A stretch of DNA of 52,938 nucleotides, from contig JBDRMV010000012.1 in the NCBI GenBank assembly GCA_043811795.1, forward strand, positions 1 to 52,938, written 5' to 3'. The position numbers and the translations under genes were made by a program. The notes beneath the pieces were generated by a model, which was not told the DNA's origin, searched no databases, and was given only the letters and a program-made list of their open reading frames with translations. Shown piece after piece: positions 6,686-37,959 of the stretch; within the stretch, counting starts at the first letter, position 1; each line of letters starts with the position of its first letter. The DNA comes from a bacterium (GTDB lineage: Bacteria; CG03).

Positions 6686-7311
6686 TGCTGAATATCGCTC
6701 TCGCTTCACTGATGACCGGCGTTTTATCCTGCGATACGGTCACCGCAGGTCAGTTTATGCTCTCAAGGCCCATTATAATGGGCCCTGTAATAGGTCTCTG
6801 CCTCGGTAATCCTTACGTCGGTTTTATAGCGGGGATTTGCGTTGAATTAATATGGTCGAGCGTAATTCCCATCGGCTCCTCAACCCCGCCGGACATGCCC
6901 ATGACGTCGGCGCTGGCGACCGCATCCGCAATTTTTTCAATTTCAAACTACGGGATAACCGAGTTCCCTGCAATAATTCTGGCTCTGGTCGTTTCGATAC
7001 CGTGCGGGATTCTTTTTCAGAAGGCGAGTTTAAAAATCCGGCTCCGTAATTCGGATATCATCGACAAAATAAAGGCGGATGTTGCAAAAGACAAATACGA
7101 GAGCGTTAATTTCTTTACTCTGTTCGCTATTCTGAGGGTTTTTCTGGTGAGCGCATTCTTTTTTGCGGCATGTTATATTCTTATTACGCAGATACCGCGC
7201 GCCTACTGGATGCTTTTTAGCATTCTGAACGTTGCCCCGTGGGTAATTTTGAGATTTATATATATTCTCTGTTTTGCGCAGTTATTCGAGATGTTCGTAA
7301 AATGGAAATAA
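6685..7311 (+). CDS. PTS mannose-family IIC membrane component (short)
   Basis: It is a polytopic membrane protein whose start overlaps the GH57 stop (TAATG). It sits directly before a IID-like gene. Confidence 0.72.
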   Translation: MLNIALASLMTGVLSCDTVTAGQFMLSRPIIMGPVIGLCLGNPYVGFIAGICVELIWSSVIPIGSSTPPDMPMTSALATASAIFSISNYGITEFPAIILALVVSIPCGILFQKASLKIRLRNSDIIDKIKADVAKDKYESVNFFTLFAILRVFLVSAFFFAACYILITQIPRAYWMLFSILNVAPWVILRFIYILCFAQLFEMFVKWK

Positions 7312-8087
7312 AAACGGAAAGACATTACGAAAAGAAGTTCGGAAAAGTCCTGAGAAAGGTTTTCTTCAGGTCATTTCTGCTGCAGGCGCTCTGGAATTTC
7401 AAAGGAATGCAGAATGCGGGCTTTCTTTACACGATAAAGCCCGTTCTGGATCTTTTATATGAAAACAAAGAAGAAAAAAAAGCCGCCTACCTGAGGCATC
7501 TTGATTTTTTTAACACTCATCCCTACTGCGCCTCTTTTATATTCGGCGTTGTGGCCAGAGAAGAAAAATTGTTTGCGGAAAGCGGAGACAGGCGGCACAT
7601 AGAACGCGCGGTTAACACAAAAAAAATTCTGGGGGGGCCCATTGCCGCCTTCGGCGACTCAATGATATGGGGAATCGCCAGACCCTTTACCGCCCTTATC
7701 GGGACAGCCCTGATTCTGCTTTTCTCCAAGAATGTAAATCTTATGTGGCTCGGCCCGGCGGCGGCTTTCGTTATTTTCAATGTTTTCCACCTCATTATAA
7801 GATACCGCGGCATTTTCATCGGCTTTGAAGACGGTGAAAAAATTTTTGATAAAATTTTAGCCGGATACATCCACAAGTGGGCGGGTTATTTGAGAACGAC
7901 AGCGATTGTTCTGATTTCACTTCTGCTTGTAAGGGGCTTTATGTCCGAAACAGGGACCATGGCGCTTAAAATGGCGTATCCCGTTTCGTTTGTTTTGCTG
8001 GTTCTTTTTCTCAACAGAATTTCTGCGACGCTTCTTTTTTATATTGTTGTCGTGGCGGGAGGAATCTTTGCAGGGTGCTGTCACTAA
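7302..8087 (+). CDS. PTS mannose-family IID membrane component
   Basis: It has the IID-type N-terminus FFRSFLLQALWNFKGMQNAGFLYTIKP. The ATG at 7302 overlaps the IIC stop (ATGGAAATAA). Confidence 0.8.
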   Translation: MEIKTERHYEKKFGKVLRKVFFRSFLLQALWNFKGMQNAGFLYTIKPVLDLLYENKEEKKAAYLRHLDFFNTHPYCASFIFGVVAREEKLFAESGDRRHIERAVNTKKILGGPIAAFGDSMIWGIARPFTALIGTALILLFSKNVNLMWLGPAAAFVIFNVFHLIIRYRGIFIGFEDGEKIFDKILAGYIHKWAGYLRTTAIVLISLLLVRGFMSETGTMALKMAYPVSFVLLVLFLNRISATLLFYIVVVAGGIFAGCCH

Positions 8088-8340
8088 AAAATATAAAATA
8101 ATGCTTGCCTCCGGTATCCACGTGAGAACCGCCCTCACAATTGCCAAACTCGTCGGCAGATTCAAGAGTAAGGTCTTTATAAAAAAGGGAGAGAATGAGG
8201 CGGGGACGGATTCTTCCCTCGGAATTCTTGCCCTGGGAATAGAAGAAGGCGATGAAATCGAAATCAGAATCGAAGGCCCCGACGGCGCGGATCTTGCGGA
8301 AGCCTTCGATAAATTGGTAAATGATAATTTTGGAGAATAG
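8068..8340 (+). CDS. ptsH: Phosphocarrier protein HPr (TTG start)
   Basis: TKKYKIMLASGIHVRTA aligns with the B. subtilis HPr segment QKTFKVTADSGIHARPA. The ATG at 8101 would delete strand 1. GGGAGG at 8057-8062 lies 5 nt before the TTG at 8068. Confidence 0.85.
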   Translation: MQGAVTKKYKIMLASGIHVRTALTIAKLVGRFKSKVFIKKGENEAGTDSSLGILALGIEEGDEIEIRIEGPDGADLAEAFDKLVNDNFGE

Positions 8341-8375
8341 CCGCAAAGCAGTCATCGCGGCAAATAGGAGTAAAT

Positions 8376-10061
8376 ATGATTTTTAGGGGTATTCCTGTTT
8401 CTCCGGGCATAGCCGTAGGAAAAGTTTTTGTTCTTGAAAAAGAAATTCAGAATGTTTATAGAAGAAACATTCTCGCTAACGCGGTAAAAAACGAAATCGC
8501 GCGTTTCAGAAAAGCGGTTTCGCAAACACGAAATGATATTATGGACGTCGAGAAAAAAATCCGGAAAGAACTTGGGCGGCGGAAAAGCCAGATTTTTGAG
8601 GGCTACCGGCTTTTCCTGGAAGACAGAATTCTCATAGAAGACACGGAGGAAATTATCCGGAAACAGAAAGTCAACGCCGAATTCGCATTCTCAATACAGT
8701 TGAAAAAAATTATTTCGGAATTTCAGAACATAAAAAATGCTTATCTGAAGGAAAGAACGCGGGACATATCCGAGCTGGGTAACAAAATTATGGCTCATCT
8801 TTTGCAGAGAGACGAAAAGTTCTCATGGTCGCAAATTCCCGAAAATTCGGTAATCGTCGCTCACAACATTACCCCGGCGGACACCACAAACATGAAGGGC
8901 AATTCGGTGATTGCCTTTGTAACCGATATCGGCGGGAAGACATCCCACACGGCAATTATGGCGAGAGCCCTTGAAATACCCGCCGTCACCGGGCTGAAAA
9001 ACTTTTCGCAGAACATTGAGGGTATGCAGGACATCATCGTTGACGGGGTAAGCGGAATCGTGATAACCGAGCCCGACGAGGAAACGCTCATAAATTACAA
9101 AAGAGAACGAAAAAAATATCATGAGGAACAATACTCCCTGCAGTATCTCATAGAAAAACCGACCGTTACCCGTGATGGAAAAACCCTGACTCTCACGGCG
9201 AACATAGAAATACCGGAGGAAATCCCAACGGTTCTTGCTCACGGCGCCGAAGGAATCGGCCTTTACAGAAGCGAGTACATTTTTATGAATTCTCCGGAGG
9301 TGCCGAAGGAGGCAGAGCAGTATCAAATATACAAAACAATCTGTGAAAAAATGCTTCCCTACCCCGTCATAGTAAGAACTTTCGATATAGGAGCGGATAA
9401 ACTTTCCGATTCAATAGAACTCCCCGATGAACCTAATCCGATAATGGGTCTGAGAGCAATCCGGCTTTACTTTAAAATCCCCGAGGTTTTCAAGACACAG
9501 CTGAGGGCTTTGATGAGGGCATCTTCGGCGGGGAATTTGAAAATAATGATTCCGATGATAACCTCCGTTTCCGAAGTGAAAAAAGTAAAGACGATTCTTG
9601 AAGAAGTGAAGCGCGAACTTGAAAACGAAGGCGTCCCGTTTAACAAAAAAACACCCCTCGGGGCGCTGATTGAAGTTCCTTCCGCCGCTCTCACCGCCGA
9701 CTTAATAGCGGAGGAAGTTGACTTTTTAAGCATCGGGACAAACGACCTTATCCAGTACACTCTTGCCGCCGACAGGTCAAACGAAAACGTCGGCTATATT
9801 TATGAGCCGATGGACCTCTCCATCCTGCGGCTCATTGATTATGTCGTAAAGGCATCCCACCGGGCGGGCAAGCAAGTTTCAATGTGCGGGGAAATGGCTT
9901 CGGACCCCGCTTACACCAAACTGCTTGTGGGAATGGACTTTGATGAGTTGAGTATGTCTTCAATTTCAATCCCCAAAATAAAGCAGATAATACGAACGAC
10001 AGATTACAAGGAAGCAAAAAAATTTGCAAGGGATTTTATAAAAAACCCTCTGGATATATGA
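8376..10061 (+). CDS. ptsI: Phosphoenolpyruvate-protein phosphotransferase (Enzyme I)
   Basis: It has the phospho-His region GGKTSHTAIMARALEIPAV and PEP-utilising C-domain motifs (GTNDLIQY, CGEMA). SD AGGAG lies upstream. Confidence 0.95.
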   Translation: MIFRGIPVSPGIAVGKVFVLEKEIQNVYRRNILANAVKNEIARFRKAVSQTRNDIMDVEKKIRKELGRRKSQIFEGYRLFLEDRILIEDTEEIIRKQKVNAEFAFSIQLKKIISEFQNIKNAYLKERTRDISELGNKIMAHLLQRDEKFSWSQIPENSVIVAHNITPADTTNMKGNSVIAFVTDIGGKTSHTAIMARALEIPAVTGLKNFSQNIEGMQDIIVDGVSGIVITEPDEETLINYKRERKKYHEEQYSLQYLIEKPTVTRDGKTLTLTANIEIPEEIPTVLAHGAEGIGLYRSEYIFMNSPEVPKEAEQYQIYKTICEKMLPYPVIVRTFDIGADKLSDSIELPDEPNPIMGLRAIRLYFKIPEVFKTQLRALMRASSAGNLKIMIPMITSVSEVKKVKTILEEVKRELENEGVPFNKKTPLGALIEVPSAALTADLIAEEVDFLSIGTNDLIQYTLAADRSNENVGYIYEPMDLSILRLIDYVVKASHRAGKQVSMCGEMASDPAYTKLLVGMDFDELSMSSISIPKIKQIIRTTDYKEAKKFARDFIKNPLDI

Positions 10062-15263: not shown

Positions 15264-15967
15264 TGCTGCGAACACTCTTTGAATGGCTTTCAAAATCTCT
15301 TTATGCTGCGCCTTTTATCGCACTCCTTGCGTCTTTTTTATGGGGGATATTGAGCATAATATTGAGTCCCTGCCATCTGGCCAGTATCCCTCTTATCGTC
15401 GGGTTTATAAACGGACAGGGAAAGATTTCAACGAAGCGCGCTTTCCTTATATCTTTGCTTTTTTCATCCGGCATACTGGTTACAATTGCCGTAATCGGCG
15501 TTATAACCGGCTTGCTTGGAAGAATGCTCGGAGATATCGGCAGGTTCGGCAATTATTTCGTCGCTGTAATCTTCTTTATTATCGGGCTTCACCTGCTGGA
15601 GATAATACCGCTCCCTTTCCTCGGGAAAGCAAACCAGCCCGGTTTCAAGAAAAAAGGTTTTGGGGCGGCTTTTCTTATGGGTTTGCTTTTCGGCGTTGCT
15701 TTAGGCCCCTGCACATTCGCTTATATGGCGCCCATGCTGGGTGTGGTTTATACGGTCGCGGCAAAAAATATTTTATTTGCGGGAGCCCTGATATTATCAT
15801 ACGCGGCCGGACACTGCTCGATAATCATTTTTGCGGGAACATTTACCGAAGTGGTACAGCATTATCTGGACTGGAACGAAAAATCAAGAGGCGCAATAAT
15901 TCTTAAAAAACTGTGCGGAATTCTGGTTATCCTGGGTGGAATATATTTAATTTACAGTTGCGTATAG
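15263..15967 (+). CDS. ccdA: Cytochrome c biogenesis CcdA/DsbD-like thiol-disulfide transporter
   Basis: It has six TM helices with the conserved SPCHL and GPCTF Cys motifs. Confidence 0.85.
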   Translation: MLRTLFEWLSKSLYAAPFIALLASFLWGILSIILSPCHLASIPLIVGFINGQGKISTKRAFLISLLFSSGILVTIAVIGVITGLLGRMLGDIGRFGNYFVAVIFFIIGLHLLEIIPLPFLGKANQPGFKKKGFGAAFLMGLLFGVALGPCTFAYMAPMLGVVYTVAAKNILFAGALILSYAAGHCSIIIFAGTFTEVVQHYLDWNEKSRGAIILKKLCGILVILGGIYLIYSCV

Positions 15968-30405: not shown

Positions 30406-31230
30406 ATGTTCGCTTTCTCAACCTTAATGCTGGAGAATTTCGGAGACTCGGCTTTTTCGCACGCAGCAGACATCGTTACTGCAGGGGTAAAGAACATCGA
30501 ACTCACCTGGAGTATCGGCCTTCCTCTGGACGATAAAAAAATGCTGCTGGACAGGTCGGGCGAAATACTGAAAACGGGCGTCAAAATAATTTCAATGCAT
30601 ACACCGCTCCGCGACGGGAACGGGAAAGACCTTGACATTTCCGCCGCCGACAACTGGGACAGGAAGTTTGCAATCAGGGAAATTCAAAAAAGCATGATAG
30701 CTTTCCGGCTGGCAGCGCCTGAACACGGAGAGAAAACCGTAATACACTGCGGCAGAAAATGCGATTATACCGGCAGAAAATCCCGGCTTGAAAAATCAAT
30801 TGAATCCCTGAAAGAAATTCTTGATTTTAACCGGGATTTCGGATACGAAATTTGTCTTGAAAACACTCTCCCCGGAGACGTCGGATGCTTCCTTGAGGAC
30901 TTACTGCTCGTAAAAGAAAAACTGAACAGTGAAAAAATCAAATTCTGCTTTGACACCGGTCATTATAATATCGGCAGAAAACAGGATGATATTCTAACGG
31001 AAATGACCCGGGACATTTCGGAAATGCACATCCACGACAACAACGGGAAAAATGACGAACACTTCGCCCCGGGAGACGGGAACATCGTCTGGAAAGACCT
31101 CTTTTCAAAAATTTCCGGATGGAGCGGAACGCCTGTTTTTGAGTTAATGGAATCCGCCCCGTACGGAATAGAAAAGTGCATAAAATTTGCGCGGGAATCC
31201 GGTTTGCTCCCCGCTGAGCCGCTTGAATAG
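30406..31230 (+). CDS. Xylose-isomerase-like TIM-barrel protein (sugar phosphate isomerase/epimerase family)
   Basis: The pattern is typical for the family: ICLEN, FCFDTGH and EMHIHDNNGKNDEH. Confidence 0.7.
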   Translation: MFAFSTLMLENFGDSAFSHAADIVTAGVKNIELTWSIGLPLDDKKMLLDRSGEILKTGVKIISMHTPLRDGNGKDLDISAADNWDRKFAIREIQKSMIAFRLAAPEHGEKTVIHCGRKCDYTGRKSRLEKSIESLKEILDFNRDFGYEICLENTLPGDVGCFLEDLLLVKEKLNSEKIKFCFDTGHYNIGRKQDDILTEMTRDISEMHIHDNNGKNDEHFAPGDGNIVWKDLFSKISGWSGTPVFELMESAPYGIEKCIKFARESGLLPAEPLE

Positions 31231-31447
31231 AACCTGAAATCTTTCTTTCTCTTTAATTTTTGCTTTGTATATTTACCATCAAGCAAAAAATATCCCAATT
31301 TTTCTACTCACGCTCCAAGATAGATAGCTTTTTCAGTACAATTTTATACTTGTAGGTTTCAACAGAAAGAGTTTTTTTAATAAGTCACTAAAGCATTATA
31401 TCCGCCGGAGCCTCGGCGAAGGAGGGGCAAGGACTGGGGTTATTCAC

Positions 31448-32284
31448 CTAAATATCAAGTCCTTTTGCAGAAGATAATTCAATATCTAATATTTTCTTAA
31501 GACTTTCTTTCCATCTAATTTTTGAATTATTTTTTAAATGCGAATACCATAATTTAACTTTAGATTCAGAATAGTAATCTAGTAATTGAGTTGCCTTTAA
31601 GATTGTATTTCTATCTCTATACCCGTTTAATTTTAAACGGCGCAAAAAATAATTAGGTTTCCCTATCCAAATAGAGTCTGTTATAAACGGTAATACTTTT
31701 TTTACAAGCAAAGTTGGGCTTTTATCAAGCAAGGGCTCACAAGACACACTTGTTTTAAATCCTTTTTTGTATGCCAACTGAAGGGATTTGAATCTTTCGG
31801 AAAAGCTAGGAGCTCCGGGCTCCCAAAATTTTAAAATACGTGTACTAATAGAACCAATTGTAAATCTAAATAAAATTTGTTTTTTGTAATCTTTAAATTC
31901 TTTACAAATTGTGGAGATACACATGAGGTGAGGTTTTGTTACTATTAAGACTTTATTGTTTTCAACCACTATGTTTTGTAAAAATTTTATTGCTTCATCC
32001 AAGTTATCTGGATGAATATCATGAGAAGAAGGAAACATTATTGTCCCTGATACCTTTTTGAATTTTTTATTAAGGTTATTTTCTTTTACAATTGCATTTT
32101 TCCAATTATCTGGAGTTCTTCGGCCAAAACGAATCGCCATTTCTTTACTGTAACAGTACTTGCAATCATGCTGGCAGCCATCAATAAAATTTGCATTTTG
32201 GCACGCCCATTCATATGTCCCAAAAATGTGTGGGTTATCCCTTAGGCTATTGTTGCTCGGTTTTGTTGATAACAATGTTTCCAT
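31448..32284 (-). CDS. Three-Cys (CX3CX2C) radical-SAM-like protein of the SplB/COG1533 type
   Basis: It has GCQHDCKYCYS near the N-terminus and an SplB-like layout (FPSSHDI, VLIVTKP, FTIGS, WEPGAPSFSER, SCEPLL). Its start abuts the upstream stop (TAAATG). Confidence 0.7.
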   Translation of the reverse strand: METLLSTKPSNNSLRDNPHIFGTYEWACQNANFIDGCQHDCKYCYSKEMAIRFGRRTPDNWKNAIVKENNLNKKFKKVSGTIMFPSSHDIHPDNLDEAIKFLQNIVVENNKVLIVTKPHLMCISTICKEFKDYKKQILFRFTIGSISTRILKFWEPGAPSFSERFKSLQLAYKKGFKTSVSCEPLLDKSPTLLVKKVLPFITDSIWIGKPNYFLRRLKLNGYRDRNTILKATQLLDYYSESKVKLWYSHLKNNSKIRWKESLKKILDIELSSAKGLDI

Positions 32285-33100
32285 TTATATTTTAGTATAG
32301 CTTTTAAATATGTCCTTTACAATTCTCCCGGCAACTTGTTCTTGGGATGCAAAAAACAAGTAATATATTATTGAACCCGTACTGTTTTTCATAGCAATTG
32401 GTTGTGGAACAATTTTAAAGCCCGCAACCTTTATCAAACGTTCTCTAAATTTTTCAGCTAAGTTTTTATTATTAATTTTCTCTTTTAGTTCCTCAAATAA
32501 ATATCCATTATTTGAATACGCAACTTCTTTCCAGGTTTCATCTCCCCAAAACCTTGTCATCCTTAATGCCTGCTCAGCCGTAACTTTGTCAGGATTTTTT
32601 TTGAGAGCGTTCATATTTATATCCATTACGGGGAAGTTCAAAAATATTTCTATGGATTTCATCTCACCGGCTGTTTTAATAACTTGCCAATCAAGATGTA
32701 ATCCATATGGATCTAGTAAACATAATCCTCTACAATACTCACTATATTTTATGCGTGGAAATACTTCCTCTAAAAGTTTTTTGTTGCAATCCCCACAATA
32801 AACATAAACGTTTTTTTTCTCTTTACTTAATTTTCTTAATAATTCCACTTTCTCTTTGTTCGTATCAATAAAATGGTATTCTTTGAAAGGTATTTTAACA
32901 TTCAAGGCATTGAGCGGACTGCCCGGAACTCTGTCCCCTGTTTCTTTTGAAATGTGTTCTCCCGCTCCTGCGAAAGCATCAACATAAATATTTTTAAATC
33001 TTGAGCCTACAATTTTTACATATGCTTCTGAATACTTTTTTAATATCTCTAATTTATCCTCCGACCAATTACCAATAATATCAAGTTTGGCTTCTTTCAT
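32285..33100 (-). CDS. TcmP-like three-Cys-motif partner protein (Rossmann methyltransferase-like)
   Basis: The N-terminus GNWSEDKLEILKKYSEAYVKI...YVDAFAGAGEH and the later LLDPYG match my recollection of TIGR04474 and amino-methyltransferase motifs I/IV. Confidence 0.62.
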   Translation of the reverse strand: MKEAKLDIIGNWSEDKLEILKKYSEAYVKIVGSRFKNIYVDAFAGAGEHISKETGDRVPGSPLNALNVKIPFKEYHFIDTNKEKVELLRKLSKEKKNVYVYCGDCNKKLLEEVFPRIKYSEYCRGLCLLDPYGLHLDWQVIKTAGEMKSIEIFLNFPVMDINMNALKKNPDKVTAEQALRMTRFWGDETWKEVAYSNNGYLFEELKEKINNKNLAEKFRERLIKVAGFKIVPQPIAMKNSTGSIIYYLFFASQEQVAGRIVKDIFKSYTKI

Positions 33101-33149
33101 TGTCTTAAACCCCTCTTATTACTGTAACACCCCTATAACACCCCAGACT

Positions 33150-33180
33150 TTGACATTTTGACATGAATAATTATACCAAA
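33150..33180 (-). promoter_or_regulatory. Extended -10 promoter and tandem ATGTCAAA repeat of the TcmP cassette
   Basis: The minus strand reads TGgTATAAT (33178-33170), followed by ATGTCAAAATGTCAAA (plus-strand TGACATTTTGACAT at 33151-33164). SD AGAGGGG lies before the ATG. Confidence 0.4.
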
Positions 33181-33468
33181 TGACAGCTCAATTCACAGCA
33201 TAAATGTGTATACATCTGTTCAAAACTGCAAGTATATTTGGGATTTTGAAATGCTACCATTCTTACAAGTTGAAGGGGTTGCAAAATTTAATATCTTTGA
33301 GAAATTCCGGTAACTATTGCAAACATTTCTTCTCGCCGAATAACCCGCCGCTATCCCCCTCACCTCAATCCTTCCGCCTCAGGCGGAAGGAAACCAAGAA
33401 TATGTAGTAAGTGGAACTTTACTTTTGCAGTCCTCAATAATTTGATTTTTAGTAGATAGCGCGGGATA

Positions 33469-33918
33469 TTATCTCCGGGGTCTCTCATTAAGTTCTTTAA
33501 AATCCGCTTTTTTCTTAAGGTTTTCCCTCTTGTCGTATAATTTCCTGCCCTTGACCAGAGCAATTTCAAGTTTCACAAAACCCTTCTTAAAGTACAAACT
33601 CAGCGGAATGGCCGTCAATTTTTTTTCCTGCGTTTTATAGAAAAATCTCGCAATCTCTTTTTTATGGAGCAGAAGGCGGCGGAGCCTCAAAGGGTCCGCT
33701 TTTTCTAACGTCGAATGGACGTAAGGGCTTATGTACATCCCAACGACTTCCGCCTGATTTTCATTGAACTTGACATAAGCGCCCTTCAAATTGGCGGCGC
33801 CGTCCCTTATCGACTTCACCTCGCTCCCTTGCAGCGCAATCCCCGCCTCTATTTTTTCAATGATAGCGTAATCGTGGAACGCCTTCCTGTTTAATATTTT
33901 TATTGACTTCGGCTTCAT
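33469..33918 (-). CDS. smpB: SsrA-binding protein SmpB
   Basis: The SmpB sequence is typical: NRKAFHDY, GIALQGSEVKS, LLLHKKEI and a basic C-terminal tail. Confidence 0.92.
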   Translation of the reverse strand: MKPKSIKILNRKAFHDYAIIEKIEAGIALQGSEVKSIRDGAANLKGAYVKFNENQAEVVGMYISPYVHSTLEKADPLRLRRLLLHKKEIARFFYKTQEKKLTAIPLSLYFKKGFVKLEIALVKGRKLYDKRENLKKKADFKELNERPRR

Positions 33919-33955: not shown

Positions 33956-34039
33956 GCCGGAGTGGCGGAATTGGCAGACGCGCTGCGTTCAGGGCGCAGT
34001 GGGCATTAGCCTGTGTGGGTTCAAATCCCTCCTCCGGCA
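33956..34039 (+). tRNA. tRNA-Leu (anticodon CAG), class II with a long variable arm
   Basis: The acceptor is GCCGGAG/CTCCGGC and the D-arm is GCGG-AATTGGCAGA-CGCG. The anticodon stem is CTGCG/CGCAG with loop TTCAGGG. The T-arm is GTGGG-TTCAAAT-CCCTC with one U-U mismatch. It is close to E. coli tRNA-Leu(CAG). No CCA is encoded. Confidence 0.9.
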
Positions 34040-34312
34040 AACTCTAAATTTTTCACAGGGGATTTGAAGCCGACCCGAGCGCCACTGGTCCGAGCGAGGG
34101 CGGCCGGCTTCGGATGAGGAGCGGCAGCGACGAGGGAGAAGAAATCCCTCCTCCGGCAAATCTTAAATTCTTCACAGGGGATTTGAAGCCGACCCCTGCC
34201 TGCCGGCAGGCAAGGCGAGCGCTCCCGAGTCGAGCGAGGGCGGCCGGCTTCGGATGAGGAGCGGCAGCAACGAGGGAGAAGAAATCCCTCCTCCGGCAAA
34301 CTCTAAATTCTT
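34023..34312 (+). repeat. Tandem repeat of the tRNA-Leu 3' end (three copies) with about 100-120 bp GC-rich hairpin units
   Basis: AAATCCCTCCTCCGGCAAA occurs at 34023-34041, 34142-34160 and 34282-34300. Each copy is followed by (C/T)TCTAAATT(T/C)TTCACAGGGGATTTGAAGCCGACCC. The units end in GAGCGAGGGCGGCCGGCTTCGGATGAGGAGCGGCAGC(G/A)ACGAGGGAGAAG. Confidence 0.85.
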
Positions 34313-34383
34313 AATGGTGTCCCATAATTGTGCAAGTCGTAGCGGAATTGTAGAAAAGAAAAAGCAGGGCGTCCCCTTTTTTT

Positions 34384-37085: not shown

Positions 37086-37326
37086 AAATTTGTTTCTGCG
37101 GGATTTTACATAATGCTCAAATTAAAAACAAGCGGACGCGTTGAATCATCTAAAATCTGACCGAAGGCCAAGCCGTTAAATCTTTTGCAAGCGGAAATAG
37201 TATTCGGTAAAATTATTGGAATAGTTTGACTGGCATCATAATTGCGGAGTCGAATGGCTTGAATTACTTCCCGTAATTTTGAATAAAAGGACTATTTTCC
37301 GAAGTCAACCACCCTTAGCACCACCA

Positions 37327-37351
37327 AAAAACCATCCGCCTGAGGCGGATT
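37327..37351 (-). terminator. Rho-independent terminator of the RRM gene
   Basis: The minus strand reads ATCCGCC-TCA-GGCGGAT followed by GGTTTTTTGG. It lies 30 nt after the stop codon. Confidence 0.65.
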
Positions 37352-37380
37352 AAGCCGTGGTGCGGAATTTATTCTTTTTC

Positions 37381-37710
37381 TTACCAGGTACGCCGTCCGC
37401 CGCCGCCTCCGCCGCCGCCGCGAGAACCGCCGCCGCGAGAACCACCTCTACCGCCGCCATTACGATCTTCGCGGGGTTTGGCTTCATTTACTTTAATGGC
37501 TCTTCCATTCAGTTCTTTACCGTTTAAGCCGGATATGGCAGCAATGCCTTCGGATTTTTCGGGCATTTCCACAAATCCGAATCCTCTGGGCTCTCCTGTA
37601 TACCTGTCCTTTAAGACAGCAACAGACGAAACCTGCCCAAATGCTTCAAACGCTTCCTTCAGACCCTGCTCAGATGTTTCTTTTGACAAATTCCCTACAT
37701 AGATATTCAT
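37381..37710 (-). CDS. RRM-type RNA-binding protein with a Gly/Arg-rich tail
   Basis: It has RNP-2 IYVGNL, RNP-1 RGFGFVEM and the C-terminal GGGRGGSRGGGSRGGGGGGGGRR. Confidence 0.9.
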   Translation of the reverse strand: MNIYVGNLSKETSEQGLKEAFEAFGQVSSVAVLKDRYTGEPRGFGFVEMPEKSEGIAAISGLNGKELNGRAIKVNEAKPREDRNGGGRGGSRGGGSRGGGGGGGGRRTW

Positions 37711-37751
37711 CTTACCCTCCTGTTTTCTATAAAGTGAACCATTACGGATAT

Positions 37752-37780
37752 ATCATACGGAAACAAAAGATAGATGTCAA
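37752..37780 (-). promoter_or_regulatory. Sigma70-like promoter of the RRM gene
   Basis: The minus strand has TTGACA (37780-37775), 17 nt, then TATGAT (37757-37752). SD AGGAGGG lies before the ATG. Confidence 0.5.
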
Positions 37781-37959
37781 GAAAGACTTCCATAAAATTT
37801 CCACTTTACTTTGGTAAGGATAGAACTTAAATATGGGTTTGTCAACACCATTTGTTTTATTCCCGGAATGCCGTTTGAAAAAAAATATTTTAAAGACAAC
37901 CTCCCCCTGCAGAAACTGTCCGAAGGACTCATATTTCAACTGTTCCCTATCAATGGTCA

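Follow-up and report, generated by a model that had tools for sequence, protein, structure and literature searches.

What does a compact pair of genes lodged between two core genes do for its host, and how did it come to be there? The question is raised by a locus on contig JBDRMV010000012.1, of which a stretch of 52,938 nt was analyzed on the forward strand (this whole stretch is called the window below, and all coordinates follow its numbering). The sequence-only reading, an earlier inspection made without database searches, had described an AT-rich two-gene cassette at this locus, encoding a TcmP-like protein and a three-cysteine radical S-adenosylmethionine (SAM) protein, and had proposed that it is a mobile nucleic-acid base-modification or defense/anti-defense module. 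Comparison with related genomes identifies 31283-33268 as a horizontally acquired, self-contained two-gene operon that occupies a variable slot between an AP_endonuc_2 gene and smpB. By sequence, the upstream protein is unambiguously a member of the TcmP family, and sequence and modeling together identify the downstream protein as a radical-SAM enzyme whose predicted fold resembles that of spore photoproduct lyase (SPL). The principal features are the following:

31283..33268: foreign segment of 1986 bp, with both genes and their own 5' and 3' non-coding parts, delimited by blastn against sister contigs
32285..33100, minus strand: TcmP gene, 271 aa, RlmJ-like Rossmann fold (predicted)
31448..32284, minus strand: radical-SAM enzyme gene, 278 aa, SPL-like
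32282..32287, minus strand: TAAATG stop/start junction (CATTTA on the plus strand), leaving zero gap between the two open reading frames (ORFs)

A horizontally acquired operon in a variable slot

The two minus-strand ORFs abut exactly as the sequence-only reading had it, and their TAAATG junction makes translational coupling probable; in homologous TcmP/radical-SAM pairs the intergenic gap ranges from -32 to +48 nt. Base composition sets the block apart from both flanks, again in agreement with that reading: GC content is 0.31-0.35 over 31200-33200 and 0.44-0.53 on either side (400-nt windows), the 31283-33268 segment as a whole has 32.6% GC against 44.0% for the window, and GC at third codon positions (GC3) is 0.26-0.28 in the two cassette genes against 0.45-0.58 in six flanking genes. 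The slot itself is defined by two core genes:

30406..31230, plus strand: left flank core gene, AP_endonuc_2/sugar-phosphate isomerase-like TIM barrel (PF01261 on orthologues; weak NCBIfam matches)
33469..33918, minus strand: right flank core gene, smpB (ORF; PF01668 on orthologues)

Close relatives were picked by their MutS homologues, which are 95% identical in two genomes (L109, NCBI GCA_043825615.1, and L110) and 85% identical in a third (L111). Similarity of MutS to proteins named Elusimicrobia (57-62%) is the only guide to host taxonomy. In L109 and L110, blastn homology to the window (92.8%) stops at 31282 and picks up again at 33269 (94.4%), and these break points therefore fix the insert at 31283-33268. 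At the same break points both genomes carry a different cargo of 1292 bp (14451-15742 in L109, 6050-7341 in L110; GC 36.6%), which encodes a 109-aa winged helix-turn-helix protein (PADLOC PDC-M05A at 5.7e-10; weakly ArsR-like) and a 186-aa protein for which no family match was obtained. The non-coding sequences of the window and L109 cargoes share nothing beyond chance 9-12-mers. In L111 the AP_endonuc_2 gene and smpB converge without any cargo, the called genes overlap, and only 25 bp interrupts the homology to the window, so that L111 represents an empty site. The sequence-only reading had suggested looking for just such a site between the TIM-barrel gene and smpB. The block is thus foreign: far from being the same two genes with backbone-like composition in all relatives, it is absent from one of them and replaced in two others. 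In a 15-billion-protein collection, neither cassette protein clusters with any other at 90% identity. No transposase or integrase is found among the window ORFs, and comparison with the sister contigs reveals no target duplication at the insert junctions; the simplest and most likely way in is replacement by way of the conserved flanks, not transposition by the cassette itself. Compact operon (2 kb, with its own leader), empty site and alternative cargo in sister genomes together provide a clean natural experiment.

TcmP and its radical-SAM partner

The upstream protein scores 195.5 bits against TIGR04474, far above the cut-off of 53, with residues 11-267 covering profile positions 1-261 of 263, and the PADLOC model PDC-M41A (PDLC04638) matches it over its full length (3.1e-74). 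No Pfam family is matched, and hence not the RlmJ family (DUF519). At 50% identity, ∼5000 clusters match the TcmP profile, and no informative domain fusion was found among the five longest or oddest matches of the representative search. The AlphaFold2 model of TcmP (pLDDT 89.8) retrieves RlmJ as all 8 of its top 8 Foldseek matches (E 4e-8 to 4e-7, TM 0.50-0.58), and a profile built from 31 TcmP homologues finds only RlmJ in the PDB, through a weak alignment (E 0.05). The TcmP-RlmJ alignment shares YxDxxAGxG, PGSPxxA and (L/I)DP(P)Y. In the window protein the corresponding motifs are Y39-x-D41-x-F-x-G45-x-G47, G60-S-P62, G103-D-C-N106 and D130-P-Y-G133, and D41, G45, G47, G60-S-P62, G103, N106 and D130-P-Y-G133 are among the invariant residues of the family. 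The assignment of this ORF to TcmP, with a Rossmann methyltransferase fold, is upheld on both counts, and all peptide motifs quoted in the sequence-only reading are present in the two ORFs. TcmP is taken to be a SAM-binding protein of RlmJ-like methyltransferase fold, which probably recognizes and flips a base in nucleic acid.

RlmJ, the Escherichia coli 23S rRNA A2030 N6-methyltransferase, is thus both the best fold match and the only PDB sequence match of the window TcmP, and it differs from it in several respects. The two are ∼13% identical, motif IV reads DPYG in TcmP and DPPY in RlmJ, and the spacing between motif I and GSP is much shorter in TcmP, from which we infer, by alignment, that the RlmJ-type helical subdomain is missing. 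RlmJ is a conserved housekeeping gene, whereas the window TcmP belongs to a mobile cassette that also encodes its radical-SAM partner.

The downstream protein matches PF04055 (41.2 bits, gathering score 29.5) and falls below the threshold of PF07505 (DUF5131, phage Gp37/Gp68; 18 against 28.9 bits), a family that the sequence-only reading had put forward for comparison and to which the protein does not belong. Its cluster motif, C37-x3-C41-x2-C44, lies within GCxHDCKYCYS. Among 25 homologues the three cysteines are invariant, so that the triad is not lost in the family, and Y43, Y45, PSSHDI and WEPGAP...ER are invariant as well. The AlphaFold2 model (pLDDT 84.6) has SPL as its top six Foldseek matches (E 1e-6, TM about 0.5), all top matches being radical-SAM enzymes, and a profile search of the PDB returns only SPL, through a weak alignment (E 0.056). 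In that alignment CxYCY and EPGxxxFxxR are shared, Y43 and Y45 fall on the radical-relay tyrosines Y96 and Y98 of SPL, and the hydrogen-donor Cys140 of the G. thermodenitrificans enzyme faces the invariant Ser86 of PSSHDI, a correspondence subject to the weakness of the alignment. The CX3CX2C motif and SplB-like layout that had been read from the sequence are accordingly borne out.

The likeness to SPL (SplB, COG1533) comprises the partial TIM-barrel fold, the CxxxCxYCY motif with both tyrosines, and EPGxxxFxxR. In contrast to SPL, the window protein is ∼90 residues shorter at the N-terminus, has serine at the Cys140 position, is 15% identical in sequence, and matches neither SPL model of NCBIfam (TIGR04070, TIGR03886) at E <= 0.01; no NCBIfam model is specific to its family. 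SPL and phage M6 gp53, an SPL-like radical-SAM isomerase that installs a DNA hypermodification, are the only two radical-SAM enzymes documented to act on DNA (PMC8989533). Unlike both of them, the window enzyme is paired with a methyltransferase-fold protein. In the RadicalSAM.org classification, MJ0683-like proteins (5-1), DUF5131 (5-2) and SPL (5-3) are neighboring subgroups of Megacluster-5 (PMC9477430), and the window protein is weakly similar to both DUF5131 and SPL.

Homologues of the radical-SAM protein number more than 2351, and 79 species-level genome loci were examined, with genes called by a simple ORF heuristic. In 42 of them the gene immediately upstream, on the same strand, belongs to the TcmP family. 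Where the radical-SAM protein is >=52% identical to that of the window, this holds for 34 of 40 assessable loci, and below 52% for 8 of 34. Of 50 upstream ORFs searched with NCBIfam, 38 matched TIGR04474. The two families thus co-occur widely: TcmP regularly has an SPL-like radical-SAM protein as its partner instead of DUF5131, and the two partner types are interchangeable.

Almost all of these upstream partners belong to a long TcmP subfamily (∼310-390 aa), which is ∼20% identical to the window TcmP and corresponds to PADLOC PDC-M30A. In the closest short-TcmP relatives at 57-61% identity (Nitrospira and others), the next gene encodes DUF5131, and only the very closest short TcmPs are followed by a PF04055-type radical-SAM protein (P0122 in locus L105, 70% identical, and that of locus L028, 72%). 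The combination of a short TcmP with an SPL-like partner was seen in three examples. In a crude neighbor-joining tree, which carries no support values, the three radical-SAM proteins linked to short TcmPs do not cluster together, and this scatter suggests repeated partner exchange. A further pair, of a long TcmP (PDC-M30A, 1e-28) and an SPL-like protein 59% identical to the window radical-SAM protein, is encoded at 6838-8804 of JBDRRS010000019.1 (L002), a contig of the same assembly as L109; this genome has no such cassette at the smpB slot.

The nearest described systems are PDC-M41 (short TcmP) and PDC-M30 (long TcmP), each combining TIGR04474 with DUF5131. They are computational candidate systems with no assigned activity. 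The window pair resembles them in its full-length, high-scoring TcmP, its two-gene operon, the Cys-triad Fe-S-type partner, and a sporadic, cassette-like distribution. It differs in the partner, which is a PF04055, SPL-like protein with a CX3CX2C motif, whereas DUF5131 partners carry IEWTxxTWNPVTGCxxxSPGCxNCYA with CX6CX2C. The two share only an N-terminal EW(A/T)...GC...CxxCY motif (hhalign E 3e-5, 42 columns). The window TcmP corresponds to component A of PDC-M41 and the window radical-SAM protein does not correspond to component B, leaving only half of that system: PDC-M41B aligns with residues 24-105 only (1.6e-4), against 1.6e-120 for a true DUF5131 partner (L106). Because the radical-SAM protein replaces the canonical DUF5131 partner, the PADLOC B models miss it, and current defense-finder models miss the SPL-like partner type. 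Since defining features of DUF5131, SPL and RlmJ are lacking, the window proteins are not members of any of these families.

The radical-SAM protein also occurs without TcmP, in 32 genome loci and in 18 viral loci of IMG/VR (31-45% identity). Neighbors in the viral loci include DnaB-like helicases, primase, recombinases, integrases, PAPS reductase-like proteins, and head or structural genes; no thymidine-hypermodification gene is among the 25 most frequent PHROG families listed around these copies. Three viral contigs encode TcmP with DUF5131, as does Synechococcus phage Ssp-JY39. In cultured phages, the radical-SAM protein has only distant archaeal-virus matches (26% identity), and five records contain distant TcmP homologues. 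Gordonia phage BaxterFox gp42 (L112 3977-4963, 23% identity) is a solo TcmP homologue; its gene directly follows that of the immunity repressor gp43 in the same orientation, within the lysogeny region that also holds the integrase, and no three-Cys partner adjoins it.

NCBI already labels the two window proteins "TcmP" and "radical SAM protein". Added here are the SPL-like radical-SAM protein as a regular TcmP partner, the uncommon short-TcmP/SPL-like combination, and a slot that is demonstrably variable. The locus is a well-documented case of an uncharacterized family, a modest variant of a known pair, and brings no new principle.

Possible functions of the pair

The reading favored here, for which belief and doubt are about evenly balanced, is that the cassette encodes a two-enzyme nucleic-acid modification module, more probably for DNA than for RNA, that is used in phage-host conflict. 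TcmP and the radical-SAM enzyme would form a complex and together install or remodel a covalent nucleic-acid modification. With its RlmJ-like base-flipping fold and intact SAM-type motifs, TcmP would recognize the target and possibly N-methylate it, and the [4Fe-4S]/SAM enzyme, an SPL-branch protein that substitutes for the usual DUF5131 'three-Cys' protein, would act on that base or one next to it by 5'-deoxyadenosyl-radical chemistry. The module could then serve as self-marking, defense or counter-defense. DNA is favored because SPL and phage M6 gp53 are the radical-SAM enzymes documented on DNA and because the radical-SAM-only form occurs in phage replication modules.

Genomic context is suggestive of conflict, not strongly so. 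PADLOC lists TcmP+DUF5131 pairs as the candidates PDC-M41 and PDC-M30, the same slot in a sister genome holds other PADLOC-candidate-like cargo, the PDC-M05A match described above, and HicAB occupies a nearby slot in L111. In S. meliloti, TcmP adjoins the Hna defense gene hna (PMC12445080) and is among prophage cargo (PMC12429752). A survey without a background rate, covering 41 pairs and the two genes closest to them on either side (143 neighbors), reveals Type I restriction-modification (R-M) genes at 3 loci, a single BrxL, and two matches each to KAP NTPase and ORF6N, with no conserved third gene beside the pair. The earlier proposal of a base-modification or defense/anti-defense module is a reasonable hypothesis.

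Several observations weigh against the favored reading. Motif IV departs from DPPY, reading DPYG in the window TcmP and DPT in the long subfamily. Neither catalysis as such nor methylation of an exocyclic amine is therefore assured; the likeness to amino-methyltransferases seen in the sequence-only reading holds at the level of the fold. The closest solved homologue of TcmP, RlmJ, acts on rRNA and not DNA, and the fold matches of both proteins reach a TM of only ∼0.5. The PADLOC B models fail to recognize the radical-SAM protein, matching only its N-terminus (1.6e-4). Most neighbors of the surveyed pairs are housekeeping genes, which leaves a weak defense-island signal without a baseline, and the window itself is not a defense island. 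Finally, the searchable literature on TcmP, DUF5131, PDC-M41/M30 and RlmJ with radical SAM yielded no functional study, in line with the earlier statement that no biochemical function has been assigned to TcmP/three-Cys pairs.

A bolder version of the DNA-modification reading is possible, though it is held only tentatively: TcmP with an SPL-like (or DUF5131) radical-SAM partner may constitute a new class of cellular DNA-modification system, in which the methyltransferase-fold subunit would flip the target base and the radical-SAM subunit would carry out C-H chemistry on it, yielding a hitherto unseen DNA base that serves phage defense as a self-mark or barrier. If this is true, the ease with which SPL-like and DUF5131 partners, and likewise long and short TcmPs, replace one another would reflect one modular chemistry behind PDC-M30, PDC-M41 and thousands of uncalled pairs, and a cellular, mobile radical-SAM/methyltransferase-fold pair that modifies DNA would bring new chemistry to epigenetic marking or immunity. 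TcmP pairs are abundant; they pass from phylum to phylum, also reach phages, and figure among the listed defense candidates.

The same architecture, a methyltransferase-fold protein plus an effector in a tight operon, would also suit an R-M-like or toxin-immunity pair, in which the radical-SAM enzyme damages unmarked nucleic acid through radical H-abstraction (strand breaks or lesions) while TcmP methylation protects self. Such a pair would render the cassette addictive as well as mobile, like R-M systems. The cassette does resemble them in being AT-rich, in encoding no mobility proteins, and in occupying a variable slot where relatives carry a replacement; its partner swapping recalls that of modular R-M components. 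We nevertheless regard this arrangement as unlikely. The solitary radical-SAM genes in 32 genome and 18 viral loci would be unexpected for an unguarded toxin, radical-SAM nucleases are not known, and SPL-like enzymes repair or isomerize and do not cleave.

If RNA were the target, the locus would be a mobile rRNA- or tRNA-modification cassette, Erm/Cfr-like, that alters sensitivity to an antibiotic, a toxin or a phage translation inhibitor. TcmP argues for this, with RlmJ (23S m6A2030) as its only PDB sequence relative and best fold and Trm1 also among the matches; Cfr-type radical-SAM RNA methylases are established mobile resistance genes, and both cassette proteins are basic (pI 9.1 and 9.6). 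The partner argues the other way, being closest to the DNA-acting SPL branch and not to RlmN/Cfr, and being found in phage replication modules and beside R-M and bacteriophage exclusion (BREX) genes. TcmP, moreover, appears from its spacing to be without the RlmJ helical subdomain between motif I and GSP. An RNA-directed cassette is likewise improbable.

Repair would assign the two proteins yet other tasks, the SPL-like enzyme reversing a thymine-type lesion (a photoproduct or radical crosslink) and TcmP recognizing the lesion or flipping the base. The closest fold is that of SPL, both enzymes have the CxYCY tyrosines and EPGxxxFxxR in common, and homologues are named 'DNA repair photolyase' by their sources. 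However, the SPL models of NCBIfam are not matched, Ser86 takes the position of the donor Cys140 (weak alignment), and repair genes do not typically show so scattered a distribution, with horizontal movement among variable slots and prophages; judged by the titles of their metagenome-assembled genomes, the hosts are largely anaerobes from dark habitats. An accessory repair module thus seems quite improbable. Chemistry on a nucleotide or small molecule, giving a viperin-like antiviral nucleotide or a methylated, radical-modified metabolite, is very improbable: viperins are among the weaker fold matches of the radical-SAM protein and pVip gives a faint match (E 0.034), but these reflect the generic radical-SAM barrel (TM 0.4-0.5, E above 1e-3), and the specific relatives, RlmJ and SPL, both have nucleic-acid polymers as substrates.

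Leader, repeats and other elements around the slot

The modification module favored above would be expressed from a segment that also contains candidate control elements, and further structures lie in the backbone beside it:

33178-33170, minus strand: extended -10-like TGGTATAAT, inside the foreign segment (pattern match)
33122..33164, minus strand: 5' leader with two pairs of tandem direct repeats, between the -10-like box and the Shine-Dalgarno (SD)-like sequence
33149-33164 (plus-strand positions): direct repeat ATGTCAAA, two copies, 5' leader
33122-33144: direct repeat GGGGTGTTAYAG, two copies, 5' leader
33110-33115: SD-like GAGGGG, cassette leader
31402..31445: cassette 3' non-coding end, with a weak hairpin CGCCG-n6-CGGCG and the left 9-mer copy, within the foreign segment
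33269..33468: host backbone downstream of smpB, outside the cassette, holding GAATAACCC and the perfect hairpin
33370-33390: perfect hairpin CCTTCCGCC-TCA-GGCGGAAGG, host backbone
33956-34039: tRNA-Leu(CAG), adjoining smpB

TGGTATAAT is a candidate cassette promoter by pattern. It is not listed by a consensus sigma-70 scan, because a -35 is missing; of the "own extended -10" described earlier, the sequence and the tandem ATGTCAAA that follows it are present, and the promoter status is that of a pattern match. The direct repeats ATGTCAAA and GGGGTGTTAYAG may form a putative operator. The cassette contains no regulator gene of its own, and the leader repeats are not conserved 5' of the two closest cassettes (L105 and L028). 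The weak hairpin at 31402..31445 has a predicted fold energy of ∼ -13 kcal/mol. Across leader and flanks, Rfam at E <= 1 matches no known RNA element other than the tRNA.

The sequence-only reading had the block bracketed by an inverted 9-mer, GGGTTATTC (31437-31445) and GAATAACCC (33338-33346), each continuing into a hairpin-bearing arm. The 9-mer has only these two copies in the window, and complementarity between the extended arms is only 71% over 24 nt. Of 2000 shuffles, 423 (21%) give an exact inverted match of >=9 nt between the two non-coding flanks, and 14 of 100 whole-window shuffles give >=2 copies of the 9-mer. The right copy lies in host backbone, which is 94.4% identical in L109 and L110, both without the cassette. 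The hairpin at 33370-33390 is present as described, as part of this shared backbone and not of the cassette. In L109 (∼15843-15865) it reads CCTCTCCC/GGGAGAGG in place of CCTTCCGCC/GGCGGAAGG, with compensatory changes and ∼ -18 kcal/mol in both; it is a structurally conserved backbone element. No T-run follows it. A pattern search of the window finds no further copies of its arms, hence no dispersed family like the repetitive extragenic palindromes, and the window cassette shares no non-coding ends with L105 and L028. The shuffles and the conservation of right arm and hairpin in cassette-free relatives rule out the inverted repeats as element termini. A transposable element bounded by terminal inverted repeats, or a miniature one of that kind, was likewise rejected, the right arm lying outside the insert and the repeat being at chance level, with no transposase ORF and no duplication at the junctions. 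An integrative island at a tRNA/tmRNA site was rejected as well: there is no integrase, and the insert ends at 33268, with smpB separating it from tRNA-Leu.

The smpB/tRNA-Leu neighborhood with its att-like repeats is as the sequence-only reading stated, and the cassette is not integrated there. The 3' 17 nt of tRNA-Leu(CAG), AAATCCCTCCTCCGGCA, recurs at 34142 and 34282, three copies in all. A discrete mobile element with terminal inverted hairpin repeats, or one integrated at the smpB/tRNA-Leu hotspot, draws on the exactness and restriction of the 9-mer to two sites, the loosely similar arms and these nearby tRNA repeats, but it is contradicted, and scarcely credible, given that right arm and hairpin are backbone also of cassette-free genomes, that shuffles reproduce the match, that transposase and integrase are absent, that smpB stands between cassette and tRNA, and that the two closest cassettes have no common non-coding sequence.

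Within 34023-34380, the AAATCCCTCCTCCGGCA copies lie inside 119/140-bp units that also hold an inverted T-arm copy. The whole 34042-34380 block is missing from L109, and one unit is present in L111. With no integrase nearby, the block has the look of att scars stacked one on another, or of a small tandem element. In L111 (3782-4209 and 5464-5708 in its own coordinates), a HicAB toxin-antitoxin pair is inserted between the Fer4 and AP_endonuc_2 genes, and the GDPD and methyltransferase/D-Ala-ligase genes that come after tRNA-Leu in the window are missing; several variable slots therefore cluster around smpB/tRNA-Leu. Farther along the window, ∼820 bp at 37134-37954 are replaced by ∼47 bp in L109, and this region includes a 109-aa ORF (37381-37710, minus strand) for a glycine-rich RNA-binding protein of the RNA recognition motif (RRM) type.

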